A stretch of 39,780 nucleotides of DNA from Burkholderiales bacterium (GCA_050050435.1 JASFUE010000001.1:1-39780); one strand, 5' to 3'. Shown: positions 12,246 through 39,780, counted from the first letter of the stretch. Numbers and translations are program-made. The notes: generated from the letters alone by a model not told the origin.

Positions 12246-13543
12246 CGTGAAATGCGCAAGCGCGCAGATTGCGCGTGGGCATCCAGCCCTTCGCCATCAG
12301 CGAGCTCGGCGGCGATTGCCCCCAGGCTGGCCGCGCCCTCGCGAGAGACCGAAATCAAACTGGTGCGCTTCTGAAAATCGTAGACGCCCAGGGGTGAAGA
12401 GAAGCGCGCCGTGCGCGCTGTCGGCAGCACATGGTTCGGCCCGGCGCAGTAATCGCCCAGCGCTTCCGATGCGTAGCGGCCAAGAAATATTGCACCCGCG
12501 TGCCGTATGCGATCGAGCAGGGCATCAGGGTCAGCCACGGACAATTCCAGATGCTCCGGAGCAATCCGGTTTGCTACCTCGCATGCCTCGTCAAGACCGG
12601 TGACGTGGATCAGTGCACCACGGTCGGCAAGAGACCTGGCAATCACCTCGCGGCGTGGCATTTGCGCAAGCTGGCGTTCGATGCTCGCCGCCACGCGGTC
12701 GAGGAAATCGGCGCCCGGGCTCAGCAGTATCGACTGCGCCATTTCATCGTGCTCGGCCTGAGAAAACATATCCATCGCTATCCAGTCCGGGTCGGTTTCA
12801 CCGTCACAAATGACCAGGATTTCCGATGGCCCCGCGACCATGTCGATGCCGACCACACCGAACACCCGCCGTTTGGCCGCTGCGACATATGCGTTTCCAG
12901 GGCCAACGATCTTGTCGACCTGCGGAATGCTCTCGGTGCCGTACGCAAGCGCGGCGATGGCCTGGGCTCCGCCGACCGTGATCACGCGTTCCACGCCGGC
13001 AATATGCGCTGCCGCCAATACCAGATCGTTGCGTTGTCCCGCGGGCGTGGGAACCACCATGATGACCTCGGCGACGCCGGCAACCTTGGCCGGGATCGTG
13101 TTCATCAGCACCGTAGACGGATACGCCGCCTTGCCGCCCGGCACATAGACGCCAACGCGATCCAGCGCCGTGATTTTCTGCCCCAGCCGGGTGCCGTCGG
13201 CTTCGACGAAATCCCACGACTCGGCTCGTTGTTTTTCGTGGTAGGCGCGGATGCGCGAAGCAGCCACTTCAAGCGCGTTGCGTTGTGCTTCCGGTAATCC
13301 GGCAAATGCCACCTGCAACGCCTGAGCCGGCAGGATCAAATCGCTGACACTGCCTGCTTCGAGCCTGTCGAAACGGCGGGTGTACTCGAGAAGCGCCTTG
13401 TCGCCGTCCTTGCGCACAGCGCGCAAAATCTCCGTTACTGCAGATTCGATGCCTTCGTCCTGGGATTCCTCGTAGGCCAGCAACGCGTCCAGGCGCTGCG
13501 CAAAATCGGGCTCGGCGCTCGACAATCTGTTGATCACACTCAT
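12242..13543 (-). CDS. hisD: Histidinol dehydrogenase
   Basis: 433 aa. It has [22 protein letters not shown] and the C-terminal LDAHA.SA..R. It overlaps both hisC and hisG by 4 bp. Confidence 0.96.
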
Positions 13544-14380: not shown

Positions 14381-14444
14381 TCCGGCCGCGGGCCAAATGA
14401 CCCGCTTGACCTGCCGCGCACGTCAGCCTTCACCGAAAGCTCAC

Positions 14445-24649: not shown

Positions 24650-24739
24650 CCCTGACTCCCTCATTGGCAACGTGAATCAGCTAATTGGCCCATGATGATG
24701 CGGTGGACCTCGGAAACCAGAGAGGGAGGAAATAATCCA

Positions 24740-26545: not shown

Positions 26546-27924
26546 GCCTGCTTCTCCAGGCTCTTCAGAAAGCCGCCCGGAATCGCGATGACAACACGGA
26601 CAATTCATCTGTGAGCAACGACGAGCGCGATGATCTTAGCCTGGAACCGTTGGCTGAACCGCAATTGGCCGAGCAAACGCGTTCAGGAAACGAGGATAAC
26701 GGTGCACCCGTTTCCTCGCCCGACGATGCCGCTGACGTGATGCGCGCCAGCGAACCGCAGCGCTACACAGCGATTGACTGGGCACGCGATCATTACATGC
26801 TCACGTTTTTGTCAGGCGCGGCCCTGTTTGCCATCCTTTACGGTCTTTACGTCTACATACAGATTTCCAGTCCCGGTATGTTCCGCTCCACGCCGGCGCC
26901 GGCCAGCGCGCCAGTAATGGCCACAGCCATGCCAGCACCAACACAAAAAACCGACACCGAGCTGCCGCGCATTTCCGGCTTACCGGATGCGACTGCCACG
27001 GCCCCGTCCGACGACATGCAACAGGGCCAGGTCGTTCCAGATAACAGTGAAGTTGCCTCGCCGGTGAAGGAGGCGGCAACGCCAACGGCCAGGCCTGCGC
27101 GCACCAGCCCGACACCTGTCGCTGCAAGCCCAAAACCATCGTCGCCTGTCAAACGCACAACTGCAACCGCAGCACAACGGGCACCATCGAAGCCGGCTTC
27201 TGCACGTGGTATCAGCACCAAAATTGACAAAGACGGTGTGGAAGTCGTCGAAATCCCGCTTGGCCCGAGGGTCGCTGCGATTTCGGAAGGCACACAACCA
27301 CCCGCGAACGAGGGCATCGCAGTACGGGCAGAAGATCCGGTTTATTCGCGCATCGATCCGGTGCTGATGATGGCCTATGAAGCCTTGCAACGCGGCGATT
27401 ATGAGAAAGCCACGGTACTGTACAGTGAAGTGCTGTCGCGCATGCCGGAGAGCACCGATGCAATGCTCGGTCTTGGCGCAATCGCCTGGAAACAGGGTCG
27501 CCCCGGTGTCGCAAGCCAGTACTACGGCCGTGTTCTGGAAGTTGAACCACGTAACACCCACGCGCAGGCTGGCTTGATCGCAATTCTCGGCAACGCCGAT
27601 CCTGTCGCCGCGGAAACCCGCCTCAAGCAACTGATCGATCGCGAGCCATCCGGATTTCTCTATTTCACACTGGGTAACCTGTACGCTCAGCGCAATTTGT
27701 GGGCGCAAGCGCAGCAAGCTTATTTCCGGGCGTTTCAGTTGCAACCCGGCAATTCAGATTACGCCTTCAACCTCGCCGTTGGCCTTGAACATTTGGGCAA
27801 AGAGCGTCCCGCGCTCGACTACTACCGAAAGGCGCTCGACCTGTCTTTCAAGAACGGCCGTGCAAACTTCGATCAAGAGCTCGCGATCGAACGTGTCGGG
27901 CAGCTCTCGGCGCGCGTTGAGTAG
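26542..27924 (+). CDS. Bitopic membrane protein with a GspB-like N-terminus and C-terminal TPR repeats (MshN-like)
   Basis: 460 aa. The N-terminus is MSLLLQALQKAARNRD, followed by the TM segment FLSGAALFAILYGLYVYI and a long Pro/Ala/Thr/Ser linker. TPR-like repeats follow (YEKATVLYSEVL...GRPGVASQYYGRVLEVEPRN...). It overlaps the secretin stop by 4 bp (ATGA). Confidence 0.8.
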   Translation: MSLLLQALQKAARNRDDNTDNSSVSNDERDDLSLEPLAEPQLAEQTRSGNEDNGAPVSSPDDAADVMRASEPQRYTAIDWARDHYMLTFLSGAALFAILYGLYVYIQISSPGMFRSTPAPASAPVMATAMPAPTQKTDTELPRISGLPDATATAPSDDMQQGQVVPDNSEVASPVKEAATPTARPARTSPTPVAASPKPSSPVKRTTATAAQRAPSKPASARGISTKIDKDGVEVVEIPLGPRVAAISEGTQPPANEGIAVRAEDPVYSRIDPVLMMAYEALQRGDYEKATVLYSEVLSRMPESTDAMLGLGAIAWKQGRPGVASQYYGRVLEVEPRNTHAQAGLIAILGNADPVAAETRLKQLIDREPSGFLYFTLGNLYAQRNLWAQAQQAYFRAFQLQPGNSDYAFNLAVGLEHLGKERPALDYYRKALDLSFKNGRANFDQELAIERVGQLSARVE

Positions 27925-27940
27925 ATCGTAAACACAAACG

Positions 27941-29650
27941 ATGGCCGAGCAACGAAAGAAGCTCCGCCTGGGTGAGTTACTCGTCCAGCAAGGGCTGATA
28001 ACCCAGGATCAGCTGCGCATCGCGCTCACTGAGCAAAGCACGCACAAGAACGTACCGATCGGCCGGCTGCTGGTTCGGCTTGGTTTCGTCACTGAATCGG
28101 TCATTCGCGACATCATGGCGCGAACGATCGGCCAGGAGAGCATTGATCTGAATCAGGTCCTGGTCGATGCGGAAGCATTACGCCTGGTGCCTCAGGAATT
28201 CGCCCGGCGGCAGCGGTTACTGCCGATTGCCTACAACGCCGAGCAAGGCGAGCTGACCGTTGCCATCACGGAAGTCTTCAATCTGGCAGCGCTCGATCAA
28301 TTACGGGCCATGGTCGGCAGCCAGGTCCATATCAAGACGGTGCTTGCCGGCCAGGCGCAGCTGGACGATTTCATAGACCAGTTCTACGGATTCGAGCTCT
28401 CCGTTGACGGCATTCTTCAGGAGATTGAAACCGGCGAGGTTGACTACCAGAGCCTGCAACAGGACGGCGGCGACGAATACACACAGCCGATCGTACGTCT
28501 GGTTGGCGCCCTTCTGGTAGATGCCGTCAAACGCGGCGCCTCTGACGTGCACTTCGAACCGGAGTACGCCTTTTTGCGAATTCGGTACCGAATCGATGGT
28601 GTACTCGAACAAGTCCGCAGTCTGCACAAGAATTACTGGGCCGGCATTGCTGTTCGCCTCAAGGTGATCAGCGGAATGAACATCGCCGAAGCGCGGGCAC
28701 CGCAGGATGGACGCATATCGCTCAACCTGAATGGCCGTCCGGTCGACTTCCGGGTATCAACCCAACCCACTATCTGGGGAGAAAACATCGTCTTGCGCGT
28801 GCTCGACCGCGAGAAGTCGATCATGACCCTGGAGCACATGAACTTGCAGCAGGACGTCATGGCCAAGCTCAACCTGATGCTGGCCAGGCCGGAAGGCATA
28901 CTGATCATTACCGGCCCCACCGGCAGTGGTAAGACGACCACGCTGTATTCGATGCTGGCAAAGCTCAATGTCGAATCCGTAAACATCATGACGCTCGAGG
29001 ACCCGGTGGAATACCCGGTTGCCCTGATGCGCCAGACTTCGGTCAATGAGGCCGCTCGCGTTGATTTTTCCAGCGGAATTCGATCGATCATGCGCCAGGA
29101 TCCGGACATCATTCTGGTAGGCGAGGTACGTGATCAGGATACGGCCGAGATGGCGTTTCGCGCGGCAATGACAGGACACCAGGTTTTCACAACCTTGCAC
29201 ACCAATTCGGCGCTGGGAACATTCCCGCGACTTCTCGATATCGGAATTGCGCCAGACATCATGGCCGGCAATATCATCGGCATCATGGCGCAGCGTCTGG
29301 TTCGCACTTTGTGCACCGAGTGCAAGGAAGCCTATGAACCCAATGCCGAGGAGCGAGTATTGCTCGGCAACAACGACGATCCACAACTGCGGCTCTACCG
29401 CCCGGTGGGCTGCGAAAAATGCAACAACCGTGGCTACAAGGGGCGTGTCGCGGTAATGGAAATCCTGCCAATGGACTCGGACCTGGACGAGCTGGTTGCG
29501 CGGCGCGCCTCGCCGCGCGAGCTGCGTGCAGCAGCAAACGCGAAAGGCTTCCGGCCATTGGCCGATGAAGGGCTGCAGCATGTCCTTGAGGGCGTGACCA
29601 GCCTCGCGGAAGTAGCCCGTGCCATTGACCTGACTGCACGGGCCCGATGA
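27941..29650 (+). CDS. GspE/PilB-family assembly ATPase of MshE type with an N-terminal MshEN domain
   Basis: 569 aa. It has Walker A GPTGSGKTTT, Asp box, Walker B ILVGEVRD, His box and a tetracysteine (CTEC...CEKC). The N-terminal RLGELLVQQGLITQDQLRIALTEQ matches the MshEN c-di-GMP motif. Confidence 0.93.
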   Translation: MAEQRKKLRLGELLVQQGLITQDQLRIALTEQSTHKNVPIGRLLVRLGFVTESVIRDIMARTIGQESIDLNQVLVDAEALRLVPQEFARRQRLLPIAYNAEQGELTVAITEVFNLAALDQLRAMVGSQVHIKTVLAGQAQLDDFIDQFYGFELSVDGILQEIETGEVDYQSLQQDGGDEYTQPIVRLVGALLVDAVKRGASDVHFEPEYAFLRIRYRIDGVLEQVRSLHKNYWAGIAVRLKVISGMNIAEARAPQDGRISLNLNGRPVDFRVSTQPTIWGENIVLRVLDREKSIMTLEHMNLQQDVMAKLNLMLARPEGILIITGPTGSGKTTTLYSMLAKLNVESVNIMTLEDPVEYPVALMRQTSVNEAARVDFSSGIRSIMRQDPDIILVGEVRDQDTAEMAFRAAMTGHQVFTTLHTNSALGTFPRLLDIGIAPDIMAGNIIGIMAQRLVRTLCTECKEAYEPNAEERVLLGNNDDPQLRLYRPVGCEKCNNRGYKGRVAVMEILPMDSDLDELVARRASPRELRAAANAKGFRPLADEGLQHVLEGVTSLAEVARAIDLTARAR

Positions 29651-29671: not shown

Positions 29672-30877
29672 ATGCCATCGTTTCTGTACAAAGCCATCGA
29701 CCGTGACGGGCGCAAAGCCAGAGGTCGCCTCGACGCATTAAACGAGAGCGATCTCGAGCTGCGTCTGCGCAAGATGGGGCTCGACCTGGTCACCGCCCGC
29801 GCCCTGGCACGCAATGCCCCGGCAATGGGCACCAGCAGTATCTCCCGTCAGGACCTCATCACGTTTTGCTTCGACATGGAACAGATTACGCGCGCCGGCA
29901 TCCCTCTGGTTGAAGGATTGCGCGACCTGCGTGACGGCCTGGAAAACCCGCGATTCAGGGAAGTTCTCACATCCGCTCTCGAGGATATCGAGGGCGGCAA
30001 GACACTGTCCCAATCCCTGGCGGCATTCCCCAAGGTCTTCAACAAGGTATTTGTCAGCCTGATTCGCGCGGGGGAACTCTCCGGCCAACTCACCGAGGTA
30101 TTCGAGAATCTGGGATCGACATTGCGCTGGCAGGACGAACTCGTCGCGCAAACACGCAAACTGCTGATCTATCCCGCTCTGGTGTTCGTCGTCGTCAGCG
30201 GCGTCGTCATCTTCTTGTTACTGTACCTGGTGCCCCAGGTTGTCGGCCTGTTGAAAACCATGGGGCTCGAGCTGCCCTTGCAAACGCGCATCCTGATCGC
30301 GCTATCTGATTTCACCATTGCGTATTGGTATTTACTGCTGATCATACCGATCGTCGCGGCGATTGGCATCACCATTGCGCTGCGCTCCAGCGCGCGCGCG
30401 CGATATGCGTTCGATTACTTTCTGCTGCGCCTGCCTGTCGTTGGCCAGATTCTGCAGAAAATATTGCTGGCCCGATTCGCCAATTTCTTTGCGTTGATGT
30501 ACCGCTCCGGCATCACCGTGCTCGATGCCATTCGCACCAGTGAGGATATTGTCGCGAACGGCTACGTCGCCGACGGACTGCGTCGCGCCGGACAGCAGAT
30601 CAATTCAGGGGAGAACCTGTCGGAAGCTTTTCAGAATCTGGGTATGTTCCCGCCGCTCGTCGTGCGGATGTTGCGTGTGGGAGAAAATACCGGGGCACTG
30701 GATACGGCGCTGTTAAATATCACGTATTTTTATAATCGCGATGTCAAGGAATCCGTGGACAAAGCGCTGAAGCTGCTGGAACCGACGCTGACGCTGTTTC
30801 TGGGCATCATCCTTGCGTTGATTCTTTTTTCGGTGCTCACACCCATTTACGATATTCTCGGACAACTGGACATCTAA
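29672..30877 (+). CDS. GspF/PilC-family inner-membrane platform protein
   Basis: 401 aa. It has two GspF repeats (LS.SL..FP..F......I..GE.SG.L and ...GE..G.LD..L) and three TM segments. Confidence 0.92.
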   Translation: MPSFLYKAIDRDGRKARGRLDALNESDLELRLRKMGLDLVTARALARNAPAMGTSSISRQDLITFCFDMEQITRAGIPLVEGLRDLRDGLENPRFREVLTSALEDIEGGKTLSQSLAAFPKVFNKVFVSLIRAGELSGQLTEVFENLGSTLRWQDELVAQTRKLLIYPALVFVVVSGVVIFLLLYLVPQVVGLLKTMGLELPLQTRILIALSDFTIAYWYLLLIIPIVAAIGITIALRSSARARYAFDYFLLRLPVVGQILQKILLARFANFFALMYRSGITVLDAIRTSEDIVANGYVADGLRRAGQQINSGENLSEAFQNLGMFPPLVVRMLRVGENTGALDTALLNITYFYNRDVKESVDKALKLLEPTLTLFLGIILALILFSVLTPIYDILGQLDI

Positions 30878-30885
30878 ACACCGAC

Positions 30886-32436
30886 ATGGCGGCCAGACTT
30901 TTCGCCTGCATATCCGGGAACAACACCACCATTGCGCGGTGGCGCCGCGGACGCCTCACAGACCTGCGTCGCTTTTCCGATGACGAGCAAGGCCACGCGG
31001 GTTTCGAAGCGTACCTGCGCGCTACGCCAAAATCGACTGTCAGTATTGTTGTCGATTCGATCGACGAAGACTATCGAACCGAGACCCTTCCACATGCATC
31101 GAGTAATGACCGCGCGCACCTGATATCGCGCAAGCTGCGCCAATTGTTCAGGTCAACGCCGTACACAGCCGCCAGCTTGCAGGAACAGACCACGGCAAGG
31201 CGCCGGGAAGACCAGTATTTGTTTGCGGCAATCACGCGTCCTGAATTACTCGCGCCATGGCTGCGCACGCTCAATGCGCTGCGCATCCCAATTACCGGAA
31301 TCTATCTTCTCCCGATCGTCACGCTCTCGGTCATAGACCGGCTTGGTGTGAAGCGGCCCAATCTGCTCATCATCAGCAAGAACGAGTCGGGATTGCGTCA
31401 GACGTTTTGCAAGGACGGTAAAATTCGCGTCAGCCGGCTGACGCCGCCGCGCGAAGAAGGTGCGCAAAGTACCGATTTCTATGCCGAGGAAATCAACAGT
31501 ACCCGGATGTACCTCGATGCGCTGACGCTCACGCACGTCGACGATGTCATTACCGTACTGATTCTGGATCATGACGACTCGCTCGACTCGTTGACTCAGA
31601 CCATCAAGCGGCATCGCCCGAACGCGGAGTGTATTCGCGTTGGCCCCTCCGAGCTGGAGAGCTCGATCGGCATTAATCGATTCGACGTAAGCAGCAGTTC
31701 GGACGCGATCCACCTGTATTTGCTGGCAACCTCGCGCCCGTTGATGAACCTGGCTCCATCCACCCTCAAGGCGCGGCTGCAGGTTCATTTTGTCGGTAAT
31801 GTAATCTATGCCGCATCAGCGGCTGTTCTTGCCATCGGCGTGCTCTGGTCACTGGTAAACGCCGCGCTGATCGTGCGTGCAGGCAGTGAAGTCACCCGCC
31901 TGGAACAGCAGGCAATCACGTTCCAGACACAGTACCGCGCGGTAACGCAGCGTTTCCCCGAAACGCCCGCCAGCTCCGAGCTGCTGCGAGACAGCGTCGA
32001 AGCGGCTATGCGCATCAATGCCTTGCGGCAAACTCCGCGAGAACTCATGCTGGTACTGGGCGCTGCCCTGAACGCATCACCGGATATCGGTCTGGAACGG
32101 GTCGAGTGGATACATGGCAGCCCGGATATGGCGGAGAACGGTTTGCGTGCAGTGGATCTGTCACAGCATCTGCAAAACGGAATCGGGCAATTCGGCATCA
32201 TTGGCGCCGAGGTTCTGTCGTACAAAGGTGACCATCAGGCAGCAATGCGCAACATTCGCGCTTTTGCCCGGCAAATTTCCGATGACGATCGTGTCGCGCG
32301 CGTGGATGTCATTCGCTTGCCTCTCGATCTCGATCCCAACGCCGGCCTGAATGGCAGCACCGCCACGGAGCAGGCAACGCAATCGGCACCGTTCGAACTG
32401 GCCGTCGTGCTCAAACCGGAGCGGACACCGCAATGA
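30886..32436 (+). CDS. Bitopic assembly protein, possibly a PilM/PilN-like fusion (MshI-like position)
   Basis: 516 aa. It has a cytoplasmic N-domain of about 290 aa, one TM segment (VIYAASAAVLAIGVLWSLVNAALIV) and a periplasmic part of about 190 aa. It starts 8 nt after gspF and overlaps the next gene by 4 bp. No sharp motif was recognised, so the call rests on architecture and context. Confidence 0.5.
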   Translation: MAARLFACISGNNTTIARWRRGRLTDLRRFSDDEQGHAGFEAYLRATPKSTVSIVVDSIDEDYRTETLPHASSNDRAHLISRKLRQLFRSTPYTAASLQEQTTARRREDQYLFAAITRPELLAPWLRTLNALRIPITGIYLLPIVTLSVIDRLGVKRPNLLIISKNESGLRQTFCKDGKIRVSRLTPPREEGAQSTDFYAEEINSTRMYLDALTLTHVDDVITVLILDHDDSLDSLTQTIKRHRPNAECIRVGPSELESSIGINRFDVSSSSDAIHLYLLATSRPLMNLAPSTLKARLQVHFVGNVIYAASAAVLAIGVLWSLVNAALIVRAGSEVTRLEQQAITFQTQYRAVTQRFPETPASSELLRDSVEAAMRINALRQTPRELMLVLGAALNASPDIGLERVEWIHGSPDMAENGLRAVDLSQHLQNGIGQFGIIGAEVLSYKGDHQAAMRNIRAFARQISDDDRVARVDVIRLPLDLDPNAGLNGSTATEQATQSAPFELAVVLKPERTPQ

Positions 32437-33044
32437 AACTCGAGCGAAAAGACCTCTTGCCACTACGTCTGCCGGTCGTGGCGTTTGTTTCGGCCCTTGT
32501 CGCCAGCATTGCGCTGGTCAACTATTCCGCTGGCAAGTACTCGGTACAGCAAGACCGCGTTCGCGAAGCGACTGCCAGGGTTGAAGAGGCAAGCAAGCGT
32601 TTCCGTGACTCGGACCTGGAAAAAGCAATGATTTCCAAGTACTTGCCGGAATACCGGAAACTGGAGGCGCACGGCTTTATCGGCTCGGAAAACCGCATCA
32701 GCTGGATCGACGCCCTGCGCATCGCCGACCAGCATGCAGGTGGATTTGGCGTTCAGTACCAGTTAAGCGCCCAGGGACCATACAAGGGCTTTCTATCGGG
32801 TGATCCAATTGCCTCACGCTTGCGGCAATCGACAATGGACATCCGCTTCGGTGTCGTGCACGAAGGGCAGTTTCTTGCCTTTCTCGATTCACTCGAGGCA
32901 CAAGATGCCGGAATGTATGCGTTGCGCTCATGTTCGCTGAAACCGGTCCACAGGGACGCTCCTCAGCCCAGAACCCAGAATCTGAGCGCAAGATGCGAGA
33001 TCGACTGGCTGACACTCATCCCGCCAGGAGGTGGCTCGTCATGA
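32433..33044 (+). CDS. Bitopic assembly protein, PilO/GspM-like (MshJ-like position)
   Basis: 203 aa. It has an N-terminal TM segment (LPVVAFVSALVASIALV), a short coiled coil, then a globular domain. ATGA overlaps occur at both ends. The assignment is contextual. Confidence 0.45.
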   Translation: MKLERKDLLPLRLPVVAFVSALVASIALVNYSAGKYSVQQDRVREATARVEEASKRFRDSDLEKAMISKYLPEYRKLEAHGFIGSENRISWIDALRIADQHAGGFGVQYQLSAQGPYKGFLSGDPIASRLRQSTMDIRFGVVHEGQFLAFLDSLEAQDAGMYALRSCSLKPVHRDAPQPRTQNLSARCEIDWLTLIPPGGGSS

Positions 33045-33511
33045 AAACGCGCCTTTTCATCGTGTTCGCTTTCGGACTTTGCCAACTGGGTCACAACTTT
33101 GCGTTGGCGCAGGACGAACCGCTTGGCCGTTTGTTCTATACGCCCTCACAACGCGCGGCGCTGAATGCAAATGTGCGCACCGTGACACGCGAGGCGCCCA
33201 AACCGAAGCCGGTTCCACCTTCCATGACCCTCAATGGCGTGATCACACGAAGTGACGGGGAACGAACCGTATGGATCGACGGCCAGGTATATCACCGCGG
33301 TGAAACCGGTGACCTTCAGGTCACGATCGAACCGGATGACCCCGGCGCGGTCGAAATCAAGGTCGAGGGCGTTCCCTACCGGCGCTCCGTACGGGTCGGC
33401 CAGCGGCTCGATCCTGCATCCGGAGAGACGCTGGAAGCATTCGAAACACGGCAACCAGACAGCGGCTACTCCGGCTCGGAAACTGCTTCAGATTCAGCTT
33501 CAGGACAGTAG
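33041..33511 (+). CDS. Small exported protein (MshK/PilP-like position)
   Basis: The ATG at 33041 is preceded by CCAGGAGGTGG. The signal peptide is MKTRLFIVFAFGLCQLGHNFALA-QD, giving a mature protein of about 130 aa. The ORF-track start at 32930 lies inside the previous gene. Confidence 0.45.
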   Translation: MKTRLFIVFAFGLCQLGHNFALAQDEPLGRLFYTPSQRAALNANVRTVTREAPKPKPVPPSMTLNGVITRSDGERTVWIDGQVYHRGETGDLQVTIEPDDPGAVEIKVEGVPYRRSVRVGQRLDPASGETLEAFETRQPDSGYSGSETASDSASGQ

Positions 33512-33539
33512 CGCAGCCAAGCTTGATAGAACGATCGCG

Positions 33540-35555
33540 ATGCAGGGTTTGGTCGAGCTGCGCAACGACGGGAGCAAGGTGGCATTCAGACACAGTCACG
33601 GGAACGCTCAGGATGGCCGGCGCCCTCGTCCCGAAGATCGGTTCGCGCTGACCTTCGTAGGGAAACCGCGATTCCTTTTGCCGTCGCGTCAACCTGATGG
33701 CGATCTATGCCAGAAGCTCTCAACCGTGGCGACCTGTAAACGTCGTTCGCCGCCAGCGCCAAGTCGATACAGGCACACACAGTGCGGCGCAATCGCGCTG
33801 GCGCTCATGATCATGCTGGGCCTGGTGATTGGCCTGCTGGTCATTTCGTTCGCTCGCAACCCAGCCGGCAACGGCGCCATCAACCCGCGCACCATTCATG
33901 CCCTGGCACAAGCGCGCGAAGCTCTGCTTGGATATTCGACAACATATAGGGATACCCATCCCGGTGAAGCGTTCGGCTATTTGCCTTGCCCTGACCTGGG
34001 AAGCGGGACCGAGGGACAGGCAGCAACTGCCTGTGGCGGCACCGATGTCACGGTCATCGGCCGGTTGCCATGGAAGACTCTGGATCTTCCGCCGTTGCGC
34101 GACGCAAGCGGCGAGTGCCTGTGGTACGCAATCTCGGGCAATTACAAGAACAATCCCAAGACCAGCGACTTGCTCAACCGCGACACCAATGGGCTGATCG
34201 AAGTCATGGCAGCCGATGGCACCGGTTTCATCGCAGGCGCCGTCCCGACACAACGCGCCGTTGCCGTGGTGTTTGCACCGGGCGCCATTCTGCCGGGCCA
34301 GGACCGCAGCCTGGCGGCAACCAATCCCCCCACCGTTTGCGGCGGCAATTACGGCCCGGCGAACTATCTGGACAGCGACGCCGCCAGCAGCATCGACAAT
34401 GCCACGGCGTCGAATGTAGCCAACGCACTCACGCGCTTTATCGCCGCGCAACACTCGGACCTGACCACGGCTGCCAATGACATATTCAACGACCAGTTGA
34501 TGACAATCGCAACTGACGATGTCTTCTCGCGCCATATCGATCGGCGCGCCGATTTCGAAAGCTACCTGACCGATCCGATTACCGGCCTGATGCGCAAGAG
34601 TGCCGATTGCCTCGCCGCCTACGGGCGCAGCAATGATTCTGGCGTAACAGCCAAGGTTTTGCCGTGGACCACGCAGATGAATGTCGGCACATTCGGCAAC
34701 TCGGCCAGTTATGACGACTCTGCGGGCAGGCTCTCGGGCCATCTTCCCTGGATCGTCGACACGTCTGCCACTACGGCACCAAATACCAATTCGAATTATC
34801 CGGGCATACCAATGTTTGATGAGTCCCGCTGTGCAGGTTGGACCGGGGTCAGTGCATTCTGGGAGAACTGGAAAGATCACCTGTATTACGCAGTCGCAAG
34901 GGCACATCGGCCAGACTCCGCGGTGGCAATCGATGATGATCCGTGCATCCTGGAAGAATGTATCAGCGTGGCCGACTCGGGCGGCATCAGGAATAACATG
35001 GCGGCGGTCATCCTCTTCTCCGGCTCGCGCATGCCAACGCGCAGCAGAAACAACGATGCCAACCCGGCATATACAAGCGCCGATAAAGCCGAACCGGCGA
35101 ACTTTCTGGACGGTATTAATCTGTTCACAATTCGCACCAATCCGGGCCCGGCTGTGACTTCGGATCGGTTGTTTTCAAAGTTGTCGGGTAACGACACCAT
35201 CATGTGTCTGCGCCCCCTGCCGGTCGGCACCGGTACCGAACTGTTCGTCGACCCGACCTGCGGCGCATCCGCGAGTTGTACCGTTGATGGCAGTTTGCTG
35301 GCAGCGTACCGGACAGGTGCAACCAACAATTGCAGGGCGGGCACCAGCGGTGTTTCCGCTGCTTGCACGTCCCTGATGCGCAATATCGACATCAACAATT
35401 GCCCTGGCGATGGGACCACTTTCATTGACGGCGACCCGACCCGCCCGTATTCGTGCGAGCGCGGCGCTCGCGACTTTGTCAGTTTTGATTGCCTGGAGGG
35501 TTTTTCCACCCCCAGGTGCCAGCTCGCCTATACTGCCCTGACCAAATGCCAGTAA
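33540..35555 (+). CDS. Large Cys-rich modular pilin-like protein without Glu5
   Basis: The reading frame is open from 33252. Plausible starts are the ATG at 33540 (671 aa) or the in-frame GTG at 33726 (609 aa, basic leader MATCKRRSPPAPSRYRHTQCG). The hydrophobic helix AIALALMIMLGLVIGLLVISF and the following REALLGY...YLPCP...ACGG...LPWKTL...LWYAIS align with the adjacent prepilin. The exported part contains 18 Cys. Confidence 0.6.
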   Translation: MQGLVELRNDGSKVAFRHSHGNAQDGRRPRPEDRFALTFVGKPRFLLPSRQPDGDLCQKLSTVATCKRRSPPAPSRYRHTQCGAIALALMIMLGLVIGLLVISFARNPAGNGAINPRTIHALAQAREALLGYSTTYRDTHPGEAFGYLPCPDLGSGTEGQAATACGGTDVTVIGRLPWKTLDLPPLRDASGECLWYAISGNYKNNPKTSDLLNRDTNGLIEVMAADGTGFIAGAVPTQRAVAVVFAPGAILPGQDRSLAATNPPTVCGGNYGPANYLDSDAASSIDNATASNVANALTRFIAAQHSDLTTAANDIFNDQLMTIATDDVFSRHIDRRADFESYLTDPITGLMRKSADCLAAYGRSNDSGVTAKVLPWTTQMNVGTFGNSASYDDSAGRLSGHLPWIVDTSATTAPNTNSNYPGIPMFDESRCAGWTGVSAFWENWKDHLYYAVARAHRPDSAVAIDDDPCILEECISVADSGGIRNNMAAVILFSGSRMPTRSRNNDANPAYTSADKAEPANFLDGINLFTIRTNPGPAVTSDRLFSKLSGNDTIMCLRPLPVGTGTELFVDPTCGASASCTVDGSLLAAYRTGATNNCRAGTSGVSAACTSLMRNIDINNCPGDGTTFIDGDPTRPYSCERGARDFVSFDCLEGFSTPRCQLAYTALTKCQ

Positions 35556-35583
35556 GACGCAAAACGCGGCCCCGGGGACTGTG

Positions 35584-36318
35584 ATGACGACATCCGTGAA
35601 GAAGCCTGTACGCGGTTTTTCGCTGATCGAATTGTCGGTCGCCTTCGTCGTGATCGCGCTGCTGCTGGGCAGCTTGCTTGTCCCTCTCTCCACCCAGGTG
35701 GATCAGCGCCGCTATGCGGAAACGGAAAAGCAGCTCGAGCAGATACGGGATGCGCTGGTCGGCTTCGCACTGGCGAATCGCTATCTTCCCTGCCCTGCGG
35801 TTTCAGCAGCAGACGGCAGCGAGGACCGCGATACCGGCACCAATGCCTGCACACTGGTTAGTGGCAACCCCAAGCGTGATGGATTTATTCCCTGGGTTAC
35901 GCTCGGTGTCAGACCCCAAGATGCGTGGGATAACCTGATTCGCTACAGCGTCGACCCGGACTTTGCGCGTTCCGATCCTGCTTTCCTGTTCACTCTGAGT
36001 AGCACCGGAGACATTCAGATTCAGGGCCGCGATAACGCAGGCAATCTAGTTGACCTCACCAACGTCGAGATACCTGCGGTCATCATTTCACACGGCAAAA
36101 ATGGCTATGGCGCTATTTCTGCAACGGGTGCAAACCGGGCGACTCCCGGCTCGTGGTCCGGAGACGAAAAAGACAACACATCGAACACGACCACTTTTTA
36201 CTATCGGACGCGCTCTGAAGTCACGTCGGCAACGGGCGGCGAATTTGATGATGTCGTTGCCTGGATCCCGCTCAACCAGTTGTTTGCCAGCATGGTCGCT
36301 GGCGGGCGTTTGCCCTGA
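35584..36318 (+). CDS. Type IV prepilin / pseudopilin with a canonical N-terminal methylation motif
   Basis: The sequence MTTSVKKPVRG / FSLIELSVAFVVIALLLGSLLV shows a leader ending in Gly, Phe at +1 and Glu at +5. At 244 aa it is long for a pilin, and it has two Cys (YLPCP...NAC). Confidence 0.88.
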   Translation: MTTSVKKPVRGFSLIELSVAFVVIALLLGSLLVPLSTQVDQRRYAETEKQLEQIRDALVGFALANRYLPCPAVSAADGSEDRDTGTNACTLVSGNPKRDGFIPWVTLGVRPQDAWDNLIRYSVDPDFARSDPAFLFTLSSTGDIQIQGRDNAGNLVDLTNVEIPAVIISHGKNGYGAISATGANRATPGSWSGDEKDNTSNTTTFYYRTRSEVTSATGGEFDDVVAWIPLNQLFASMVAGGRLP

Positions 36319-36393
36319 GCCGTCGACTCAAGCGCCGGACCGCATCACGTTCGCACCGGAGAACCGTTAGGCTACCTTCCGGCACTGGTTCGC

Positions 36394-38142
36394 CTACGAT
36401 GCCTTTTCTGCAGGCGACAGTTCGAAGCAGACACGTCCCGGTGCATTCTGTGCCAGGCGCAAAACATAGTCCCGCTCCCGCGCGAAACGGCTCGCCTGAT
36501 ACAAGCCAACGCCCAGCCCGGTTTTGGACGTCGATACCGGAGAATCGAACAAGCGCGCTGCCACCTCTTCATCGACCGGCTCGCCGTCATCACACACAGT
36601 GACAATCGAGCCATTGTCATCCGACTGCAGAGTAATCGTGATCGACAATCCCGGCACCAACCGCCGCTTGTGCAATGCGTTCTGCAACAGATTGTCACTG
36701 ACACTGTCGAACAATTCCGCGTGCAACATGCCTTCGCTCTCGGGAGTGAGCCCGGTCTCCAGGAAAGTTACCGGCTCGTAGGCGTAGCGTTGTTTCAGGC
36801 TTTCCCACCAGTCAAACACTTTCGACTGTTCGCCTGCACTGCTGACTTCGCTGGCGAGTTTATCCAGGGTAATCTGCAATCGCTGGGCAATCTGCGGCAG
36901 CTGACGTCGCATCAACCACCGCACTGCCTCGGCGTCGGCTTCACCACTGGTCTCAGCCGCGTTACACAGCGATCGCAGCGACTGCAACAGGTTCTTCACG
37001 TCATGTGTAAGCCGCGAGCCAGTTTCATAAATCGCCTGCATGTAGGCATTTCGGCGCTGCTGGGCCGCACGCACCTTACTCTCGTAATAGTCGCCGAGCA
37101 GTCGCGCCAGCAATCGGATATGCAATACCAGCGCCGGGCTGGGCGCAAAACGCGTGTAGACGATGAGCCCAAGCCCGCCGAACGAGAATTCGGTGGCGTG
37201 GCGGGTCTGCTCGCCAACCTCACCGCTGCCGCCGACAGCTCTCCAGCGCACGCCGGCTACCCAGGGCAATACCGCCAGTTCATGTGCTGCCAGCACGGCG
37301 AACTTGTCGGCATCGTCAACACGCTCTGCCATGCCCGCGAGGCTGTGCATCCAGCGCTCGAATGGAATGCCAACGCTGAGAAAGTAACGCGTAACCAGTT
37401 GCCCTATCCCGACGAAACCCGCCCTCGGGTCCCACAGCAGCGACAGCACGATCAGGAACAAGGCGATGCCAAACAGCGTTTGGGTCAAGGCAACAACGTA
37501 GTTGCCATGACTGAGCTGCTTGATCACGAACGAGCCAAGCACCAATACGACCACCAGCAGGAAGAGCAGGACGCTGTAGAACAGATCCAGCGCGTACACG
37601 GTTTGACGCTCGGTCTTCTCGGTACGTATGAAAAAGATCAGGGCCGCCGGTATCACCAGGCCGTAGGCGACAATGAGTTGCACGAAACCCGGAAAGGCCT
37701 GCTCCTTGAAAAGGTGGGGTACGACCCACATGAGCAGAATCGACAGCAGGTACAAGGCGGCGAGAAAAGACCCGGCACGCTGCCGGACATTCCGTATCCC
37801 CGGCATGTTCCCGCCGATCAGGGAGAACAATATCGAAATCCACAATGCCATCAACCACCAGCTTCCGGCCACCACCAGGAAAGCGCCGGCGATCAGTATC
37901 AGCACCACCTGCCTGACCACCAGCCGCTGCTCCCCGCGCCAAAGCGGTTGCCACAACAGGAACAGCCCGAAATGCGTCGTCAACAATGCGCGAGCGAGCG
38001 GATCCGTCAGTTCGAGCACCAGCCCGCCATGCAAGGCCAGCAGCATGAGCGACAGCCAGTGTTCCTGGCGCATCGAACCAATCAACCGGGCAATTCGCCC
38101 CTTCGGGACCTGCTCGGTTACCGGGTTGATCTCAACGGACAT
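36394..38142 (-). CDS. Polytopic sensor histidine kinase (PrsK-like)
   Basis: 582 aa. It has about eight TM segments with very short loops (aa 28-237) and the H-box SRLTHDVKNLLQSL (His380, about nt 37003-37005). N, G1 and G2 box remnants are NLLQNALH, DDG and GLGVGL. It is convergent with the pilin operon. Confidence 0.9.
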   Translation of the reverse strand: MSVEINPVTEQVPKGRIARLIGSMRQEHWLSLMLLALHGGLVLELTDPLARALLTTHFGLFLLWQPLWRGEQRLVVRQVVLILIAGAFLVVAGSWWLMALWISILFSLIGGNMPGIRNVRQRAGSFLAALYLLSILLMWVVPHLFKEQAFPGFVQLIVAYGLVIPAALIFFIRTEKTERQTVYALDLFYSVLLFLLVVVLVLGSFVIKQLSHGNYVVALTQTLFGIALFLIVLSLLWDPRAGFVGIGQLVTRYFLSVGIPFERWMHSLAGMAERVDDADKFAVLAAHELAVLPWVAGVRWRAVGGSGEVGEQTRHATEFSFGGLGLIVYTRFAPSPALVLHIRLLARLLGDYYESKVRAAQQRRNAYMQAIYETGSRLTHDVKNLLQSLRSLCNAAETSGEADAEAVRWLMRRQLPQIAQRLQITLDKLASEVSSAGEQSKVFDWWESLKQRYAYEPVTFLETGLTPESEGMLHAELFDSVSDNLLQNALHKRRLVPGLSITITLQSDDNGSIVTVCDDGEPVDEEVAARLFDSPVSTSKTGLGVGLYQASRFARERDYVLRLAQNAPGRVCFELSPAEKAS

Positions 38143-38341: not shown

Positions 38342-39145
38342 ATGGTCAAGTCTATTGCAAATCCCGCGCCGATGCCGCTTTGCTCGCGCATCCTGGCAAT
38401 TGCCCGTTACACCGTCCTGGAAGCATGGCGCAATCGATCCGGGCTGGTGCTCATCGGGATGGTCATTATTGTCTTTCTCACCAGCTTTTTTGTTCGTCAG
38501 CAAGCCATCACCGATTCGACGCGCGCGCAGGTAATTTTTCTCGCATCTTTTCTGCGACTCGGCGCAGTCTTCCTGATCGCTTTTTCCGTTTTGCAGGGAT
38601 CTGTGCGTGAGTTCCAGGACAAAGTGCTTGAACTGATGCTCTCGCTCGACTTGCCGCGCCCCGCTTACCTCACGGGCAAATTTATCGGCTACGCACTACT
38701 TTGCGTGATCTGCGCAGCGGCAGTATCGCTGCCCTTGCTGTTGGTAAGTGAGCCACAAGACGTTCTCAAATGGGTCTTTTCCCACACCCTCGAATTATGG
38801 GTAGTGGCTGCTCTCGCGCTGTTTTGCGTCACAACGTTCTCGCAACTTCTGCCGGCGGCCGCATTCGTGATGGCGTTCTACCTGCTGGCAAGATCGATCG
38901 CCGCGATCGAACTCATCAGCCAGTCCACACTGATCGAGCCGGGTCCGGCATCGGGTCTTGCAGCCTTTCTCGCCAAGGCAATTTCCGTCATGCTGCCGCA
39001 TCTGGACGCATTTGCCCAGACGGCATGGCTGATCGGCGCGACTGCCCAGCCGCTTTCCATTGCCAGCGCCATCCTGCAGACGCTCATTTACGTTTCGCTG
39101 TTATTGTTTGCGGCCATGTTTGATCTGAGCCGCCGCAACTTCTAG
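38342..39145 (+). CDS. ABC-2/NosY-like transporter permease with no adjacent ATPase gene
   Basis: 267 aa with six TM segments. The N-terminal ILAIARYTVLEAWRNRSGLVLI is typical of ABC-2-like permeases. The start may instead be the Met at 38372. Confidence 0.7.
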   Translation: MVKSIANPAPMPLCSRILAIARYTVLEAWRNRSGLVLIGMVIIVFLTSFFVRQQAITDSTRAQVIFLASFLRLGAVFLIAFSVLQGSVREFQDKVLELMLSLDLPRPAYLTGKFIGYALLCVICAAAVSLPLLLVSEPQDVLKWVFSHTLELWVVAALALFCVTTFSQLLPAAAFVMAFYLLARSIAAIELISQSTLIEPGPASGLAAFLAKAISVMLPHLDAFAQTAWLIGATAQPLSIASAILQTLIYVSLLLFAAMFDLSRRNF

Positions 39146-39151
39146 ACTCGA

Positions 39152-39780
39152 ATGCGATTGGCGCTCGCGAAACAACGTCCGGTTGGTGATGTCCCGGGAT
39201 GGATTCGCTGGTTATTGCCCGCCATTCTCGCGTTGCAGATTGTCTTTCGCATCGCTTCGCCGCCGCCAGCGGCGATTGCCGATCAACTTGGCTCCCCGCC
39301 CTCGTTGAACACTTTACGCCTTGCGTCACTCGGGGAACCCATCGGCCTCGCCCTCGGACTGGACCTTTACCTGCAGGCATCTGACACACAGCCCGGAGTC
39401 AGCATTCCGTTTCGCAAACTCGACTACCAGAACATTGTTCTCTGGCTCGATCGCATTATCGAACTCGATCCGGATGGCGCGTATCCGCTTCTTCTCGCCT
39501 CACAGGTGTATTCACAGGTACCCGATCACGCCAAACAGCGGCTGATGCTCGATTTCGTGTACCAGAAATTCGGTGAAGATCCGCTGCGGCGCTGGCGCTG
39601 GCTGGCGCACGCAGCCATCATCGCCAAACACCGTCTCGAAGACCCACGACTGGCGCTGACCTACGCCCGCGCCATCGCCCGCGAAGCCAATGACCCTTCG
39701 GTGCCTTCGTGGGCAAGACAAATGCATATTTTTCTGCTCGAGGATCTCGGCGAGTACAAGGCCGCCGAAGCCCTGCTCGG
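39152..39780 (+). CDS. Membrane-anchored hypothetical protein, 5' part only (runs off the window)
   Basis: The ATG lies 6 nt after the permease stop. I read 209 codons with no stop to the window end, and the ORF is absent from the ORF track because it has no stop. It has one TM segment (WIRWLLPAILALQIVF) followed by helical, TPR-like text. Confidence 0.5.
   Translation, partial: MRLALAKQRPVGDVPGWIRWLLPAILALQIVFRIASPPPAAIADQLGSPPSLNTLRLASLGEPIGLALGLDLYLQASDTQPGVSIPFRKLDYQNIVLWLDRIIELDPDGAYPLLLASQVYSQVPDHAKQRLMLDFVYQKFGEDPLRRWRWLAHAAIIAKHRLEDPRLALTYARAIAREANDPSVPSWARQMHIFLLEDLGEYKAAEALL

Follow-up and report, generated by a model that had tools for sequence, protein, structure and literature searches.

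A modular pilin-like protein without Glu5, encoded in an MSHA-like type IV filament locus, as a candidate tip subunit

The gene at 33726-35555 of the DNA analyzed here, a window of 39,780 nucleotides from a Burkholderiales bacterium (GCA_050050435.1 JASFUE010000001.1:1-39780), is best explained as encoding a modular minor pilin that would start and cap the filament built by an MSHA-like type IV machine, a reading to which we assign a probability of roughly 0.6. A preliminary description of this DNA had taken the product for a tip or cap subunit or an adhesin rather than a secreted substrate, and this view gains support from the family-wide loss of Glu5, the homology to a pilin and the variable tail. 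Its location at the tip, as well as its cleavage, incorporation into the filament, initiator role and adhesion, we infer from sequence. The features of the gene and of its downstream neighbor are as follows.

33726-35555, + strand: gene of the Glu5-less modular pilin-like protein, 609 aa, likely start GTG 33726, stop 35553-35555 (ORF list and translation)
33726-33788, + strand: basic leader of 20 residues and Gly21 (33786-33788), with a putative prepilin-peptidase site Q-x-G / A-I-A-L-A
33789-33851, + strand: hydrophobic alpha1N helix, residues 22-42 (AF2 helix 21-42; hydrophobic in all homologues)
33885-33956, + strand: alpha1C helix, residues 54-77, carrying the conserved ALAQAKEALIGYA motif (AF2 secondary structure and pLDDT)
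33957-34541, + strand: pilin head copy 1, residues 78-272, with C88/C103 and the motifs GRLPW, ECLWYA, AVAVVFAPG, GQDR, ANYLD and FND
34542-35213, + strand: middle region, residues 273-496, family-specific, a helical connector followed by a second, helix-less pilin head
35214-35552, + strand: variable C-terminal tail, residues 497-609, with 9 Cys and a tenth, C494, just upstream
35581-36318, + strand: prepilin-1, canonical, 245 aa, Gly at 35614-35616 in G/FSLIE (Pfam N_methyl and TIGR02532 matched)

The N-terminal module and its relation to prepilin-1

The open frame extends from 33252 to 35555, and its initial ~260 nt overlap the upstream gene for a 156-aa protein (33041-33511) in another frame. 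All peptide strings quoted in the preliminary description lie in frame, while its term "giant ORF" holds in a relative sense, the likely protein being 609 aa long. The proposal of GTG 33726 as the start of a protein with a long and basic leader seems correct, since the N-termini of homologues P0005-P0007 (M-x-x-C-[IV]-A-[KR]-R) match the counterpart here (V-A-T-C-K-R-R); the resulting 20-residue leader, VATCKRRSPPAPSRYRHTQC, has five Lys/Arg and one His. The leader is 15-18 residues long in related loci L006, L016, L019 and L025, where an upstream stop codon permits one start only. The JGI gene call for the protein (P0001, 582 aa) begins at Met28, inside the hydrophobic helix, and the conserved Gly is therefore removed from it; existing gene calls either cut the protein short inside the helix in this way or name it hypothetical. 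At least 1695 homologues were found among 8000 candidates scored, none with a relevant Pfam domain, and relatives were seen in 471 stretches from GTDB species genomes.

The codon at 33786-33788 encodes Gly and is followed by A-I-A-L-A, so that the reading of Ala at both +1 and +5 is confirmed at the level of codons. The Gly at -1 is present in 85 of 85 homologues and Gln stands at -2 in 60 of them (in the family alignment Q19 is conserved at 90% or more and G21 is invariant). The +1 residue in the same 85 is mostly Ala, Val or Ile, with A, V, I, Q, S and G as the six commonest and Phe absent from those six, and the counts at +5 are A 35, V 29, L 11, I 7, T 1 and F 1, with Glu not among the residues tallied. 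Of the G-A-x-x-x-A junction that the preliminary description proposed to check in orthologues, the Gly is thus invariant, with mainly A/V/I at +1 and A/V/L/I at +5. Most homologues have a spacing of 42 between this Gly and the AKEAL motif. Judged from these alignments, the loss of Glu5 combined with an invariant -1 Gly is a trait of the whole family, beyond any single sequence.

The alpha1N helix would cross the membrane before assembly and become a filament-core helix afterwards. It is separated from alpha1C by a low-confidence loop of 11 residues (43-53) in the AF2 model, and an alpha1 broken in two by a disordered loop, which is unusual in a pilin, counts against a tip pilin. We likewise count against it the long leader (15-20 residues) and the small residues close to where the hydrophobic segment ends, which could permit cleavage by signal peptidase I as well.

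The proposed paralogy between the N-terminal module and the neighboring prepilin proves to be well above chance. BLASTP aligns residues 55-167 with residues 47-154 of prepilin-1 (E = 1e-6, 26% identity), and hhalign between profiles of 67 and 60 sequences gives a probability of 99.3% and E = 3.6e-20 over 230 columns (609-aa protein 9-271, prepilin 2-239), a span that covers the leader, Gly, hydrophobic helix, Cys pair and head. Reversed or column-shuffled alignments used as controls reach scores of 8-20 and probabilities of at most 1.4%. The heads alone (78-272 against 67-245 of prepilin-1) remain similar at 98.2% and E = 3.4e-14, and the helix parts alone at 96.3% and E = 1.5e-9. From this evidence prepilin-1 is a paralogue of the N-terminal module. 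The similarity after the Gly, for which the preliminary description had suggested an HMM-HMM comparison, thus extends over the entire prepilin, and the hydrophobic segment is seen to be pilin-derived, rather than an unrelated signal anchor, because the profile similarity spans the leader, Gly and helix of prepilin-1 and the helix parts match by themselves.

The details of the earlier alignment are also reproduced. Profile-profile comparison recovers the quoted pairs RAVAVVFAPGA / IPAVIISHGKN and IFNDQLMTIATDDVFS / EFDDVVAWIPLNQLFAS, and the ALAQAKEALIGYA motif of alpha1C aligns with EKQLEQIRDALVGFA of the prepilin by both BLASTP and hhalign. The Cys pair said to be common to the two proteins is indeed so: C88 and C103 are invariant in the family of the 609-aa protein and align with C71 (invariant) and C90 (90% or more) of the prepilin family. 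Prepilin-1 itself belongs to a family with the motif G/F-[ST]-L-[IV]-E in 112 of the 112 homologues where the motif was found, and its NCBIfam matches are restricted to the N-terminus and far below cut-offs.

Predicted fold, internal repeat and tail

Scans of the 609-aa protein against Pfam and NCBIfam yield no family at E ≤ 0.1, N_methyl and TIGR02532 included, and Pfam matches among 67 aligned members are scattered chance matches, none of them to N_methyl, PilX_N, T2SSK or vWA. The family profile finds nothing meaningful among PDB sequences, the best match being a GH16 protein at E = 0.56. The AF2 model of the protein (pLDDT 89.1, pTM 0.86) has an alpha1 split into 21-42 and 54-77, then strands, and a C-terminus predicted to be helical (596-606); Foldseek finds no match to this model at E ≤ 0.001 in PDB or BFVD. 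The prepilin-1 model (pLDDT 90.3) has a continuous alpha1 (15-66) plus a sheet, and in fold it comes closest to the type IVb pilin CofA (9iuf_A; marginal, with E = 0.075, probability 0.95 and TM 0.35-0.41). Since the larger protein has no match in the PDB, support for its pilin fold comes by the single route of homology to prepilin-1, whose own match to CofA is marginal.

The middle region contains a repeat of the protein's own head, with a core at residues 386-495 (nt 34881-35210). This core matches residues 132-261 of head 1 by hhalign at 95.9% and E = 5.7e-9, with a score of 62 vs. 8-20 for shuffled and reversed controls. The repeat is detectable only against head 1 of the same protein, as comparison of the middle region with the prepilin-1 head is not significant (E = 0.4). 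A phmmer search with the middle region against 1.84 billion representatives gives 218 matches, and in full-length phmmer matches the region lies mostly at ~250-500 within proteins of 450-620 aa; by this measure the middle domain is confined to the present architecture.

The tail shows no significant similarity to other parts of the protein and is a candidate ligand-binding or display module. It is missing in Gallionella-type homologues of 455-475 aa, while P0079 and P0091 have in its place ~290 aa that give legume-lectin-like Pfam matches. A tail that is absent, Cys-rich or lectin-like from one homologue to another agrees with an adhesin module on display. Of 18 Cys in the mature part, 10 are invariant, which suits an extracytoplasmic, disulfide-stabilized protein.

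The locus and its comparison with known filament systems

The surrounding genes include those of the assembly machinery, as listed here.

21703-23142, + strand: sigma-54-dependent response regulator (NtrC / PrsR-like), head of the cluster (Pfam Sigma54_activat, Response_reg, HTH_8)
23144-24649, + strand: MshM/ExeA-like protein, AAA_22 plus SPOR (Pfam, NCBIfam)
24692-26545, + strand: secretin (TIGR02519, MshL, score 249.8 vs. a cut-off of 250.2)
26542-27924, + strand: TPR protein (Pfam, NCBIfam)
27941-29650, + strand: MshE-type ATPase with a c-di-GMP-binding N-domain (MshEN of Pfam and NF053729 above cut-offs)
29672-30877, + strand: GspF/PilC platform (Pfam, NCBIfam)
30886-32436, 32433-33044 and 33041-33511, + strand: three proteins of 516, 203 and 156 aa without a confident family (Pfam, NCBIfam)
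36394-38142, - strand: multi-pass membrane histidine kinase, convergent with the prepilin gene (Pfam HATPase_c; weak PrsK similarity)
38342-39145, + strand: 267-aa ABC-2-like membrane protein, 72% identity to 12603-13406 of related locus L001 (tblastn)
39164-39778, + strand: 242-aa protein, truncated by the contig end to its first 205 aa, 75% identity to L001 13428-14156 (tblastn)

The gene order of the machinery recurs across 80 related loci, in nearly all of which the order secretin, 609-aa-type gene, prepilin is conserved, and prepilin-1 lies directly 3' of the larger gene in nearly every related locus with enough DNA. The histidine kinase, kept downstream of prepilin-1 in many loci, is likely the partner of the response regulator, which itself matches the NCBIfam models ntrC and PEP_resp_reg below cut-off. 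Membership in a PEP-CTERM/exosortase system was considered and rejected, with scores for the XrtA-associated ATPase, PrsK and PrsR all far under cut-offs. The 516-aa upstream protein has chance matches only among PDB sequences.

In the closest genomes the genes for the 267-aa and 242-aa proteins precede a further canonical prepilin gene, pil2 (at approximately 14414-15106 in L001), and by analogy pil2 of the present genome would sit just past the end of the window. Of 42 related loci spanning 15 kb or more, 26 have genes of this kind downstream; on this ground a closed two-pilin system was considered and rejected, and the 609-aa protein and prepilin-1 are left as a minor-pilin pair. Because of these further prepilins, prepilin-1 is probably a minor-pilin partner bearing Glu5 and not the major pilin. 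It is the single Glu5 prepilin in the window, where we recognize no GspI/J-like partners and find no prepilin peptidase gene. A search for sigma-54 promoters (TGGCAC-N5-TTGCW, up to 2 mismatches) gives 30 matches vs. 25 expected and none in the 214-nt gap before the GTG, a sigma-70 scan of 33300-36600 gives no match, terminator-like matches number 7 vs. 3.8 expected with no convincing site, and Rfam has no family within the window.

The machinery resembles the MSHA cluster of Vibrio cholerae (mshHIJKLMNEGF / mshBACDOPQ), with which it shares an MshM-like ATPase, an MshL-like secretin, an MshN-like TPR protein, an MshE-type ATPase and a GspF platform. Its gene order is rearranged, none of the models for MshI/J/K and MshA-Q is matched at the locus (Pfam, NCBIfam), and its pilin set consists of a Glu5-less modular pilin and its paralogue (plus pil2) in place of MshB/A/C/D/O/P/Q. 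Rearranged MSH-like clusters of unknown function have been described in Gallionellaceae genomes (PMC3770913; PMC10734482).

Similarity to the Glu5-less minor pilins GspK/XcpX and PilK/PilX/MshP begins with a cleavage-site Gly and, after it, a hydrophobic helix that has no Glu at +5. As in the GspK/PilK group, the gene sits with machinery and minor-pilin genes away from the major pilin, the protein is larger than other pilins through extra elements, and a place as first and topmost subunit is predicted for it (PMC13533445). The label "GspK-type" is nevertheless useful as an analogy only: the T2SSK, PilX_N and NCBIfam minor-pilin models are unmatched by 67 members of the family, as is N_methyl, and Foldseek finds no match to 3CI0, GspK, XcpX or any other solved pilin chain. 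The extra mass here is a tandem repeat of the protein's own head plus a tail, whereas in GspK it is an alpha-domain inserted in the sheet, and GspK has GspH/I/J-type partners where the 609-aa protein has one adjacent partner, its own paralogue. CpaL, a TadG-type adhesin, is likewise a protein of ~600 residues with an N-terminal pilin-like module fused to large domains, but it contains a vWA/MIDAS domain, which Pfam does not detect in the 609-aa protein, and it belongs to a Tad machine rather than one with an MSHA/T2SS-like ATPase, platform and secretin. The C-terminus of the 609-aa protein is predicted to be helical, where CpaL has a terminal beta-strand that folds back onto its pilin sheet. 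CpaL has been described as a pilin-like protein with an adhesin domain, and a position at the tip has been proposed for it, from which it would take part in initiation and in contact with surfaces (bioRxiv 10.1101/2025.02.12.637803; PMC13533445). By this comparison the 609-aa protein is best read as acting like GspK or CpaL while being a member of neither family.

PilB and PilC of Streptococcus sanguinis also combine a pilin carrier with C-terminal functional modules, in the case of PilC a lectin-type module, and some homologues of the 609-aa protein are similarly lectin-like. They differ in that PilB/PilC keep the IPR012902 / N_methyl signature, which is lost in the present family, and in that the first grafted module here is a duplicate pilin head. 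With a pilin module (1-272) followed by a head repeat and a variable tail, the protein has the makeup by which modular pilins are defined in PMC8179133, without matching the operational IPR012902 signature of that survey; surveys based on signatures miss modular pilins with a decayed N-terminal motif such as these. The tip location of PilB/PilC-type modular pilins has been deduced from their bulk (PMC8179133).

TcpB and CofB (~500 aa) are also large minor pilins with a pilin domain and C-terminal domains, encoded in clusters with few pilin genes. A long leader is shared as well, and it is a type IVb pilin, CofA, that prepilin-1 matches best in fold. Their structures have no sequence or Foldseek similarity to the 609-aa protein, however, TcpB retains Glu5, and their machinery is type IVb rather than MSHA-like (MshL/M/N/E-type). 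Both initiate assembly and are located at the tip (PMC8179133; PMC13533445).

A putative role at the filament tip

The role we favor would begin with insertion of the 609-aa protein into the inner membrane, the basic leader lying on the cytoplasmic side, after which a prepilin peptidase, encoded outside the window, would cut after Gly21. The mature protein would carry a hydrophobic alpha1N without Glu5. Contact of Glu5 with the N-terminus of a subunit above would thus be impossible for it, which would leave the topmost position as the only suitable one. This is in line with GspK/PilK homologues, which are invariably without Glu5 and apical (PMC13533445), and with modular pilins, which are most probably located at the tip (PMC8179133). 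Prepilin-1, bearing Glu5, would dock underneath. Subunits of the major pilin, probably the product of pil2 a short way beyond the window, would next be added by the c-di-GMP-responsive MshE-type ATPase and the GspF platform, and their addition would push the cap through the MshL-like secretin. On display at the tip would be two pilin heads and a tail that differs between lineages (Cys-rich, lectin-like or absent) and may bind the target surface. The MshEN / c-di-GMP domain on the ATPase, as in adhesive MSHA pili, counts in favor of a tip pilin, and the globular mass of ~60 kDa that would have to pass the secretin counts against it. Also against it are a window with neither a prepilin peptidase gene nor recognizable GspI/J-like partners, the models N_methyl, TIGR02532, PilX_N and T2SSK matched by none of 67 family members, and a confident AF2 model that finds no PDB match at E ≤ 0.001.

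Some of the same evidence could be taken to mean that the protein never enters a filament and is an uncleaved, pilin-derived bitopic protein of the inner membrane, held by a permanent signal anchor and serving as a periplasmic scaffold, secretin plug or stator. The lack of Glu5 and Phe1, the unmatched class-III signal-peptide models, the long leader, an alpha1 predicted to be broken by a flexible loop, and an unorthodox machine whose 516-, 203- and 156-aa upstream proteins have no recognizable PilMNOP/GspLM domains would all agree with this. We nonetheless consider it unlikely, as an invariant Gly and a near-invariant Gln stand before the helix exactly at the prepilin-peptidase cut site, a variable lectin-like or Cys-rich end fits surface display better than a structural role in the periplasm, and cleavage and an apical position are known for the Glu5-less pilins GspK/PilK (PMC13533445).

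If the protein is cleaved and assembled, it might also sit sporadically along the shaft as a minor pilin, or decorate the filament body as an adaptor, instead of initiating at the apex. Modular pilins in the filament body are conceivable given a flexible linker (PMC8179133), and loop 43-53 is predicted to be flexible, but a subunit without Glu5 would have no contact for docking under an earlier one (PMC13533445) and ~570 residues of rigid globular mass (pTM 0.86) would clash with neighboring subunits, which makes this placement quite improbable. Least credible is a pilin-derived exoprotein whose long Sec signal is cut by signal peptidase I (near ISFA/R) and which is released as a soluble substrate of a type-II-secretion-like machine. 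Positions +20 to +23 after the Gly, where the hydrophobic segment ends, are often occupied by small residues, the machinery has GspE/F/D-type components, and the mature part is Cys-rich like many secreted proteins. On the other side, the hydrophobic stretch of ~21 residues has transmembrane length and exceeds a typical Sec h-region, a position-specific Q-x-G conserved in the n-region is foreign to Sec signals, and the segment shares its ancestry with alpha1N of a true prepilin.

A tip pilin of this kind would bear on the initiation and tip composition of type IV filaments, which is an active question. Known solutions to starting a filament are a GspIJK-type heterotrimer with or without PilY1, CpaL in Tad pili, and TcpB/CofB trimers. 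The present family would add another, in which a cap arises from pilin duplication, both as a separate gene and inside the cap protein. The MSHA-like pilus to which the protein would belong is most likely an uncharacterized one found in many Betaproteobacteria, and several hundred species genomes from iron- and sulfur-cycling Betaproteobacteria of environmental importance conserve the system, in which bacteria the variable lectin-like or Cys-rich tail is a concrete candidate determinant of attachment to surfaces or minerals.

A bolder and decidedly tentative extension, for which we see somewhat poor odds, is that the locus represents an unrecognized, MSHA-derived subclass of type IV filaments. 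The usual priming complex consists of four to five proteins (GspH-K, or PilVWX plus PilY1), and its place would be taken here by two paralogues whose head fold has no PDB counterpart. A tandem two-headed pilin without Glu5 and a one-headed pilin with Glu5 would together contribute three homologous heads and could form a pseudo-trimeric cap, which would resemble GspIJK or the TcpB/CofB homotrimer and would also present a swappable adhesin module. Such a subclass would be distributed over Gallionellaceae, Sulfuricellaceae, Rhodocyclales-like and other Betaproteobacteria.

A pilin module shared by adjacent genes

The gene at 35581–36318 (+), next to that of the 609-aa pilin-like protein referred to here as the giant protein (33726–35555, +), encodes a canonical prepilin, prepilin-1 (G|FSLIE; Pfam N_methyl, TIGR02532). 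The preliminary description had read the N-terminal module of the giant protein as paralogous to this prepilin and had called for a profile–profile comparison. In a direct BLASTP comparison the two proteins match at E = 1e-6 (giant 55–167 against prepilin-1 47–154). When family alignments built from database homologues (A1, 67 giant sequences; A2, 60 prepilin-1 sequences) were compared with hhalign, they matched over 230 columns (99.3% probability, E = 3.6e-20); giant residues 9–271 pair with residues 2–239 of prepilin-1, so that the match takes in the whole prepilin with its leader, Gly and hydrophobic helix. With the alignments split, the heads alone give 98.2% and E = 3.4e-14 and the helix regions alone 96.3% and E = 1.5e-9, while reversed or column-shuffled control alignments score 8–20. 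The paralogy is thus borne out, as is the shared Cys pair (C88/C103 in the giant protein, C71/C90 in prepilin-1), which is conserved across both families, and the proposed module end at 34541 (residue 272) coincides with the end of the prepilin-1 homology.

The region after the pilin module is not foreign. Giant residues 386–495 (34881–35210; head 2) match the beta-domain of head 1, residues 132–261 (34119–34508), with an hhalign probability of 95.9%, E = 5.7e-9 and a score of 62 (shuffled controls, 8–20), so that the beta-domain of the pilin head is duplicated in tandem within the giant protein. Together with prepilin-1, this makes three homologous heads in two adjacent genes.

Corresponding motifs in the two heads of the giant protein (head 1; head 2)
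LWYAVSG; LFYAVA
AVAVIFAPG; AAVVIFAG
GQDR; GQxR
ANYLD; ANYLE
FNDRL; GNDxxM

The AF2 model of the giant protein is confident (pLDDT 89.1, pTM 0.86) and predicts alpha1 as two helices, 21–42 and 54–77, linked by a low-confidence loop; alpha1 of prepilin-1 is predicted as a single helix, 15–66. The middle region is found in 218 representative clusters among 1.84 billion proteins, is almost confined to the giant architecture and lies mostly at about 250–500 in full-length matches of 450–620 aa. The last ~110 residues (35214–35552) form a tail with 9 Cys, a tenth, C494, lying just upstream. Comparison of the homologues P0079, P0091, P0092 (from Ferrigenium kumadai) and P0109 indicates that this Cys-rich tail is lineage-variable: it is missing from the 455–475-aa Gallionella/Ferrigenium versions, and in P0079 and P0091 (~800 aa) it is replaced by ~290 residues with legume-lectin-like Pfam matches (PF00139, PF18483). 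No part of the giant protein itself has a Pfam or NCBIfam family match, its family has no PDB sequence match, and a Foldseek search with the model found nothing at E ≤ 0.001 in PDB or BFVD.

Reading frame, start and junction

The giant reading frame is open from 33252 to 35555, and its 5' part overlaps, in another frame, a 156-aa gene ending at 33511.

In-frame start candidates of the giant gene downstream of the 156-aa gene (codon, position, leader length)
ATG, 33540, 82
TTG, 33549, 79
GTG, 33579, 69
TTG, 33678, 36
GTG, 33726, 20

The N-termini of the closest giant homologues, M-x-x-C-[IV]-A-[KR]-R, line up with V-A-T-C-K-R-R at 33726, and the leader is 15–18 residues long in the related loci where a stop codon permits one start (L006, L016, L019 and L025), the single start of L016 being preceded by an AGGAGG Shine-Dalgarno sequence. 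Based on these N-termini and leader lengths, GTG 33726 is taken as the likely start, corresponding to a 609-aa protein. Its Shine-Dalgarno-like sequence is weak, and the 214-nt gap upstream yielded no promoter, terminator or Rfam match when these were sought. The public JGI gene call for this protein (P0001, 582 aa) begins at Met28 (33807), within the hydrophobic helix, dropping the conserved Q-x-G junction, and is probably wrong.

Among 85 giant homologues with an intact N-terminus, the junction consensus is R-Q-[RS]-G | [AVI]-A-L-L-[AVLI]. All 85 carry the cleavage-site Gly, and nearly all have an aliphatic residue at +5, with no Glu among the residues tallied there, which upholds the claim that the giant protein lacks Glu5; Phe at +1 falls outside the six commonest residues, and the spacing from the Gly to AKEAL is 42 residues in most. 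In the prepilin-1 family, in contrast, the motif was located in 112 homologues and reads G|F-[ST]-L-[IV]-E in every one. This family-wide difference marks loss of Glu5 with retention of the cleavage-site Gly as an old, selected property of the giant family.

Gene cluster, distribution and a further pilin

Features of the cluster (coordinates, strand, description)
21703–23142, +, sigma-54 response regulator
23144–24649, +, MshM/ExeA-like ATPase
24692–26545, +, secretin (MshL equivalog model 249.8 bits, cut-off 250.2)
26542–27924, +, TPR protein
27941–29650, +, MshE-type ATPase (MshEN domain; c-di-GMP motif NF053729 59 bits, cut-off 38)
29672–30877, +, GspF/PilC platform
30886–32436, +, 516-aa protein (p516), no confident family
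32433–33044, +, 203-aa protein (p203), no confident family
33041–33511, +, 156-aa protein (p156), no confident family
36394–38142, −, multi-pass histidine kinase, convergent with the prepilin-1 gene

By its model score, the secretin is MSHA-like but just outside the curated MshL family. The MshEN domain and MshE-related c-di-GMP-binding motif of the assembly ATPase suggest that filament assembly is c-di-GMP-gated. The proteins p516, p203 and p156 gave only weak GspL-C and T2SSB hints and no confident Pfam, NCBIfam or PDB-sequence match; their genes sit where an alignment subcomplex (PilMNOP, GspLM or MshIJK) would be encoded, and their order is conserved across nearly all related loci. The response regulator and histidine kinase, which bracket the cluster, match the PEP-CTERM regulators PrsR and PrsK below threshold. 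In several loci of Gallionella type (L031, L033, L035, L042) the gene after prepilin-1 encodes a response-regulator-like protein instead of the kinase, which indicates that the regulatory module has been rearranged between lineages. Positions 1–21623 are housekeeping and unrelated to the pilus cluster (semialdehyde dehydrogenase, DegP-like protease, TatC, histidine biosynthesis genes, a MurA/EPSP-synthase-family gene, ABC-2 transporter genes and an MlaC/D/E plus ATPase set), and the window contains no prepilin peptidase gene.

Among GTDB species genomes, 471 stretches encode a relative, with named carriers including Gallionella, Sideroxydans, Sulfuricellaceae, Sterolibacterium and Azovibrio restrictus DSM 23866. 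Across 80 related loci the genes keep the order secretin, TPR, ATPase, GspF, p516, p203, p156, giant, prepilin-1, prepilin-1 directly following the giant gene in nearly every one with enough downstream DNA. MSH-like clusters that are rearranged and have no known function are mentioned in Gallionellaceae genome papers (PMC3770913; PMC10734482); we found no literature on the giant protein.

When the related loci were scanned for further G-xxxx-E prepilins, a third pilin type of ~215–230 aa emerged (pil2), with a short leader and the start G|FTL[IV]E[IL]AIVLVIIGLLLG. In 26 of the 42 loci that span at least 15 kb, this canonical prepilin is encoded 1–6 kb downstream, beyond the two-component genes or sometimes immediately 3' of prepilin-1, and often in two copies; examples with G|FTL[IV]E[IL]AIVLV... 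are at 14414–15106 in L001 and at 12164–12838 and 12975–13646 in L031. The closest genomes have giant, prepilin-1, histidine kinase (−), 267-aa protein, 242-aa protein and pil2 in this order. Past prepilin-1, the window holds the kinase gene and the 267-aa gene and then ends with the contig after 205 codons of the 242-aa gene (39164–39778), and thus a pil2 orthologue would be expected a few hundred bases beyond. This corrects the picture of prepilin-1: for the major pilin, pil2, likely just outside the window, is the better candidate. The giant protein and prepilin-1 therefore look like a minor-pilin pair accompanying the machinery genes.

Proposed place of the giant protein in the filament

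Neither a simple signal anchor nor a Sec signal peptide would be expected to carry a position-specific Q-x-G ahead of a membrane helix, and mainly for this reason we infer that the giant protein is still a prepilin-peptidase substrate. We consider it unlikely that the protein is an uncleaved membrane scaffold, and highly improbable that it is a Sec-cleaved exoprotein. Instead it would be synthesised as a bitopic prepilin, with cleavage after Gly21. Contact with subunits incorporated earlier is mediated by Glu5, a residue that the apical PilK/GspK homologues invariably lack (PMC13533445); without Glu5, the giant protein could thus serve only as the first subunit. A minor pilin could also decorate the shaft, a role that we consider quite doubtful for a protein restricted in this way. 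As first subunit, the giant protein would be joined by prepilin-1, which has Glu5 and would dock beneath it, with pil2 polymerising below, so that the two-headed cap with its variable tail would end at the filament tip as an adhesin; the c-di-GMP-binding ATPase suggests control linked to a surface lifestyle. The data directly show homology, conservation, architecture and synteny, from which processing, position and function are inferred. We assign a probability of roughly 60% to this reading of a first or tip subunit acting as cap and adhesin.

The giant protein resembles GspK/PilK/MshP in its probable function as a Glu5-less apical pilin, CpaL and modular pilins in combining a pilin carrier with an adhesin module, and TcpB/CofB as one large initiator minor pilin. 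By the tests applied it is not a member of any of these families, as there is no family HMM or fold match. The preliminary tip, cap or adhesin reading is supported, with "GspK-type" holding only as an analogy. Unlike CpaL, the giant protein has no vWA domain, and unlike GspK it shows neither an inserted alpha-domain nor GspI/J partners. What sets it apart is that one and the same pilin head was duplicated to give both the partner protein and the first additional domain; this head fold has no confident PDB counterpart. Tip pilins without Glu5 are already an established idea. The giant family has not been described before, nor have its internal duplication of the head, its wide occurrence in environmental Betaproteobacteria and its unorthodox machine.

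The best structure match of the prepilin-1 model is the type IVb pilin CofA (E = 0.075, probability 0.95, TM 0.35–0.41), a marginal likeness that is suggestive only, although prepilin-1 shares Phe at +1 with type IVa pilins. Prepilin-1 is unusually large (mature ~233 aa), has Pro at +23, and carries its only two Cys in the alpha-beta loop rather than the C-terminal D-region. Its start is ambiguous, GTG 35581 giving an 11-residue leader and the NCBI call (240 aa) one of 6.
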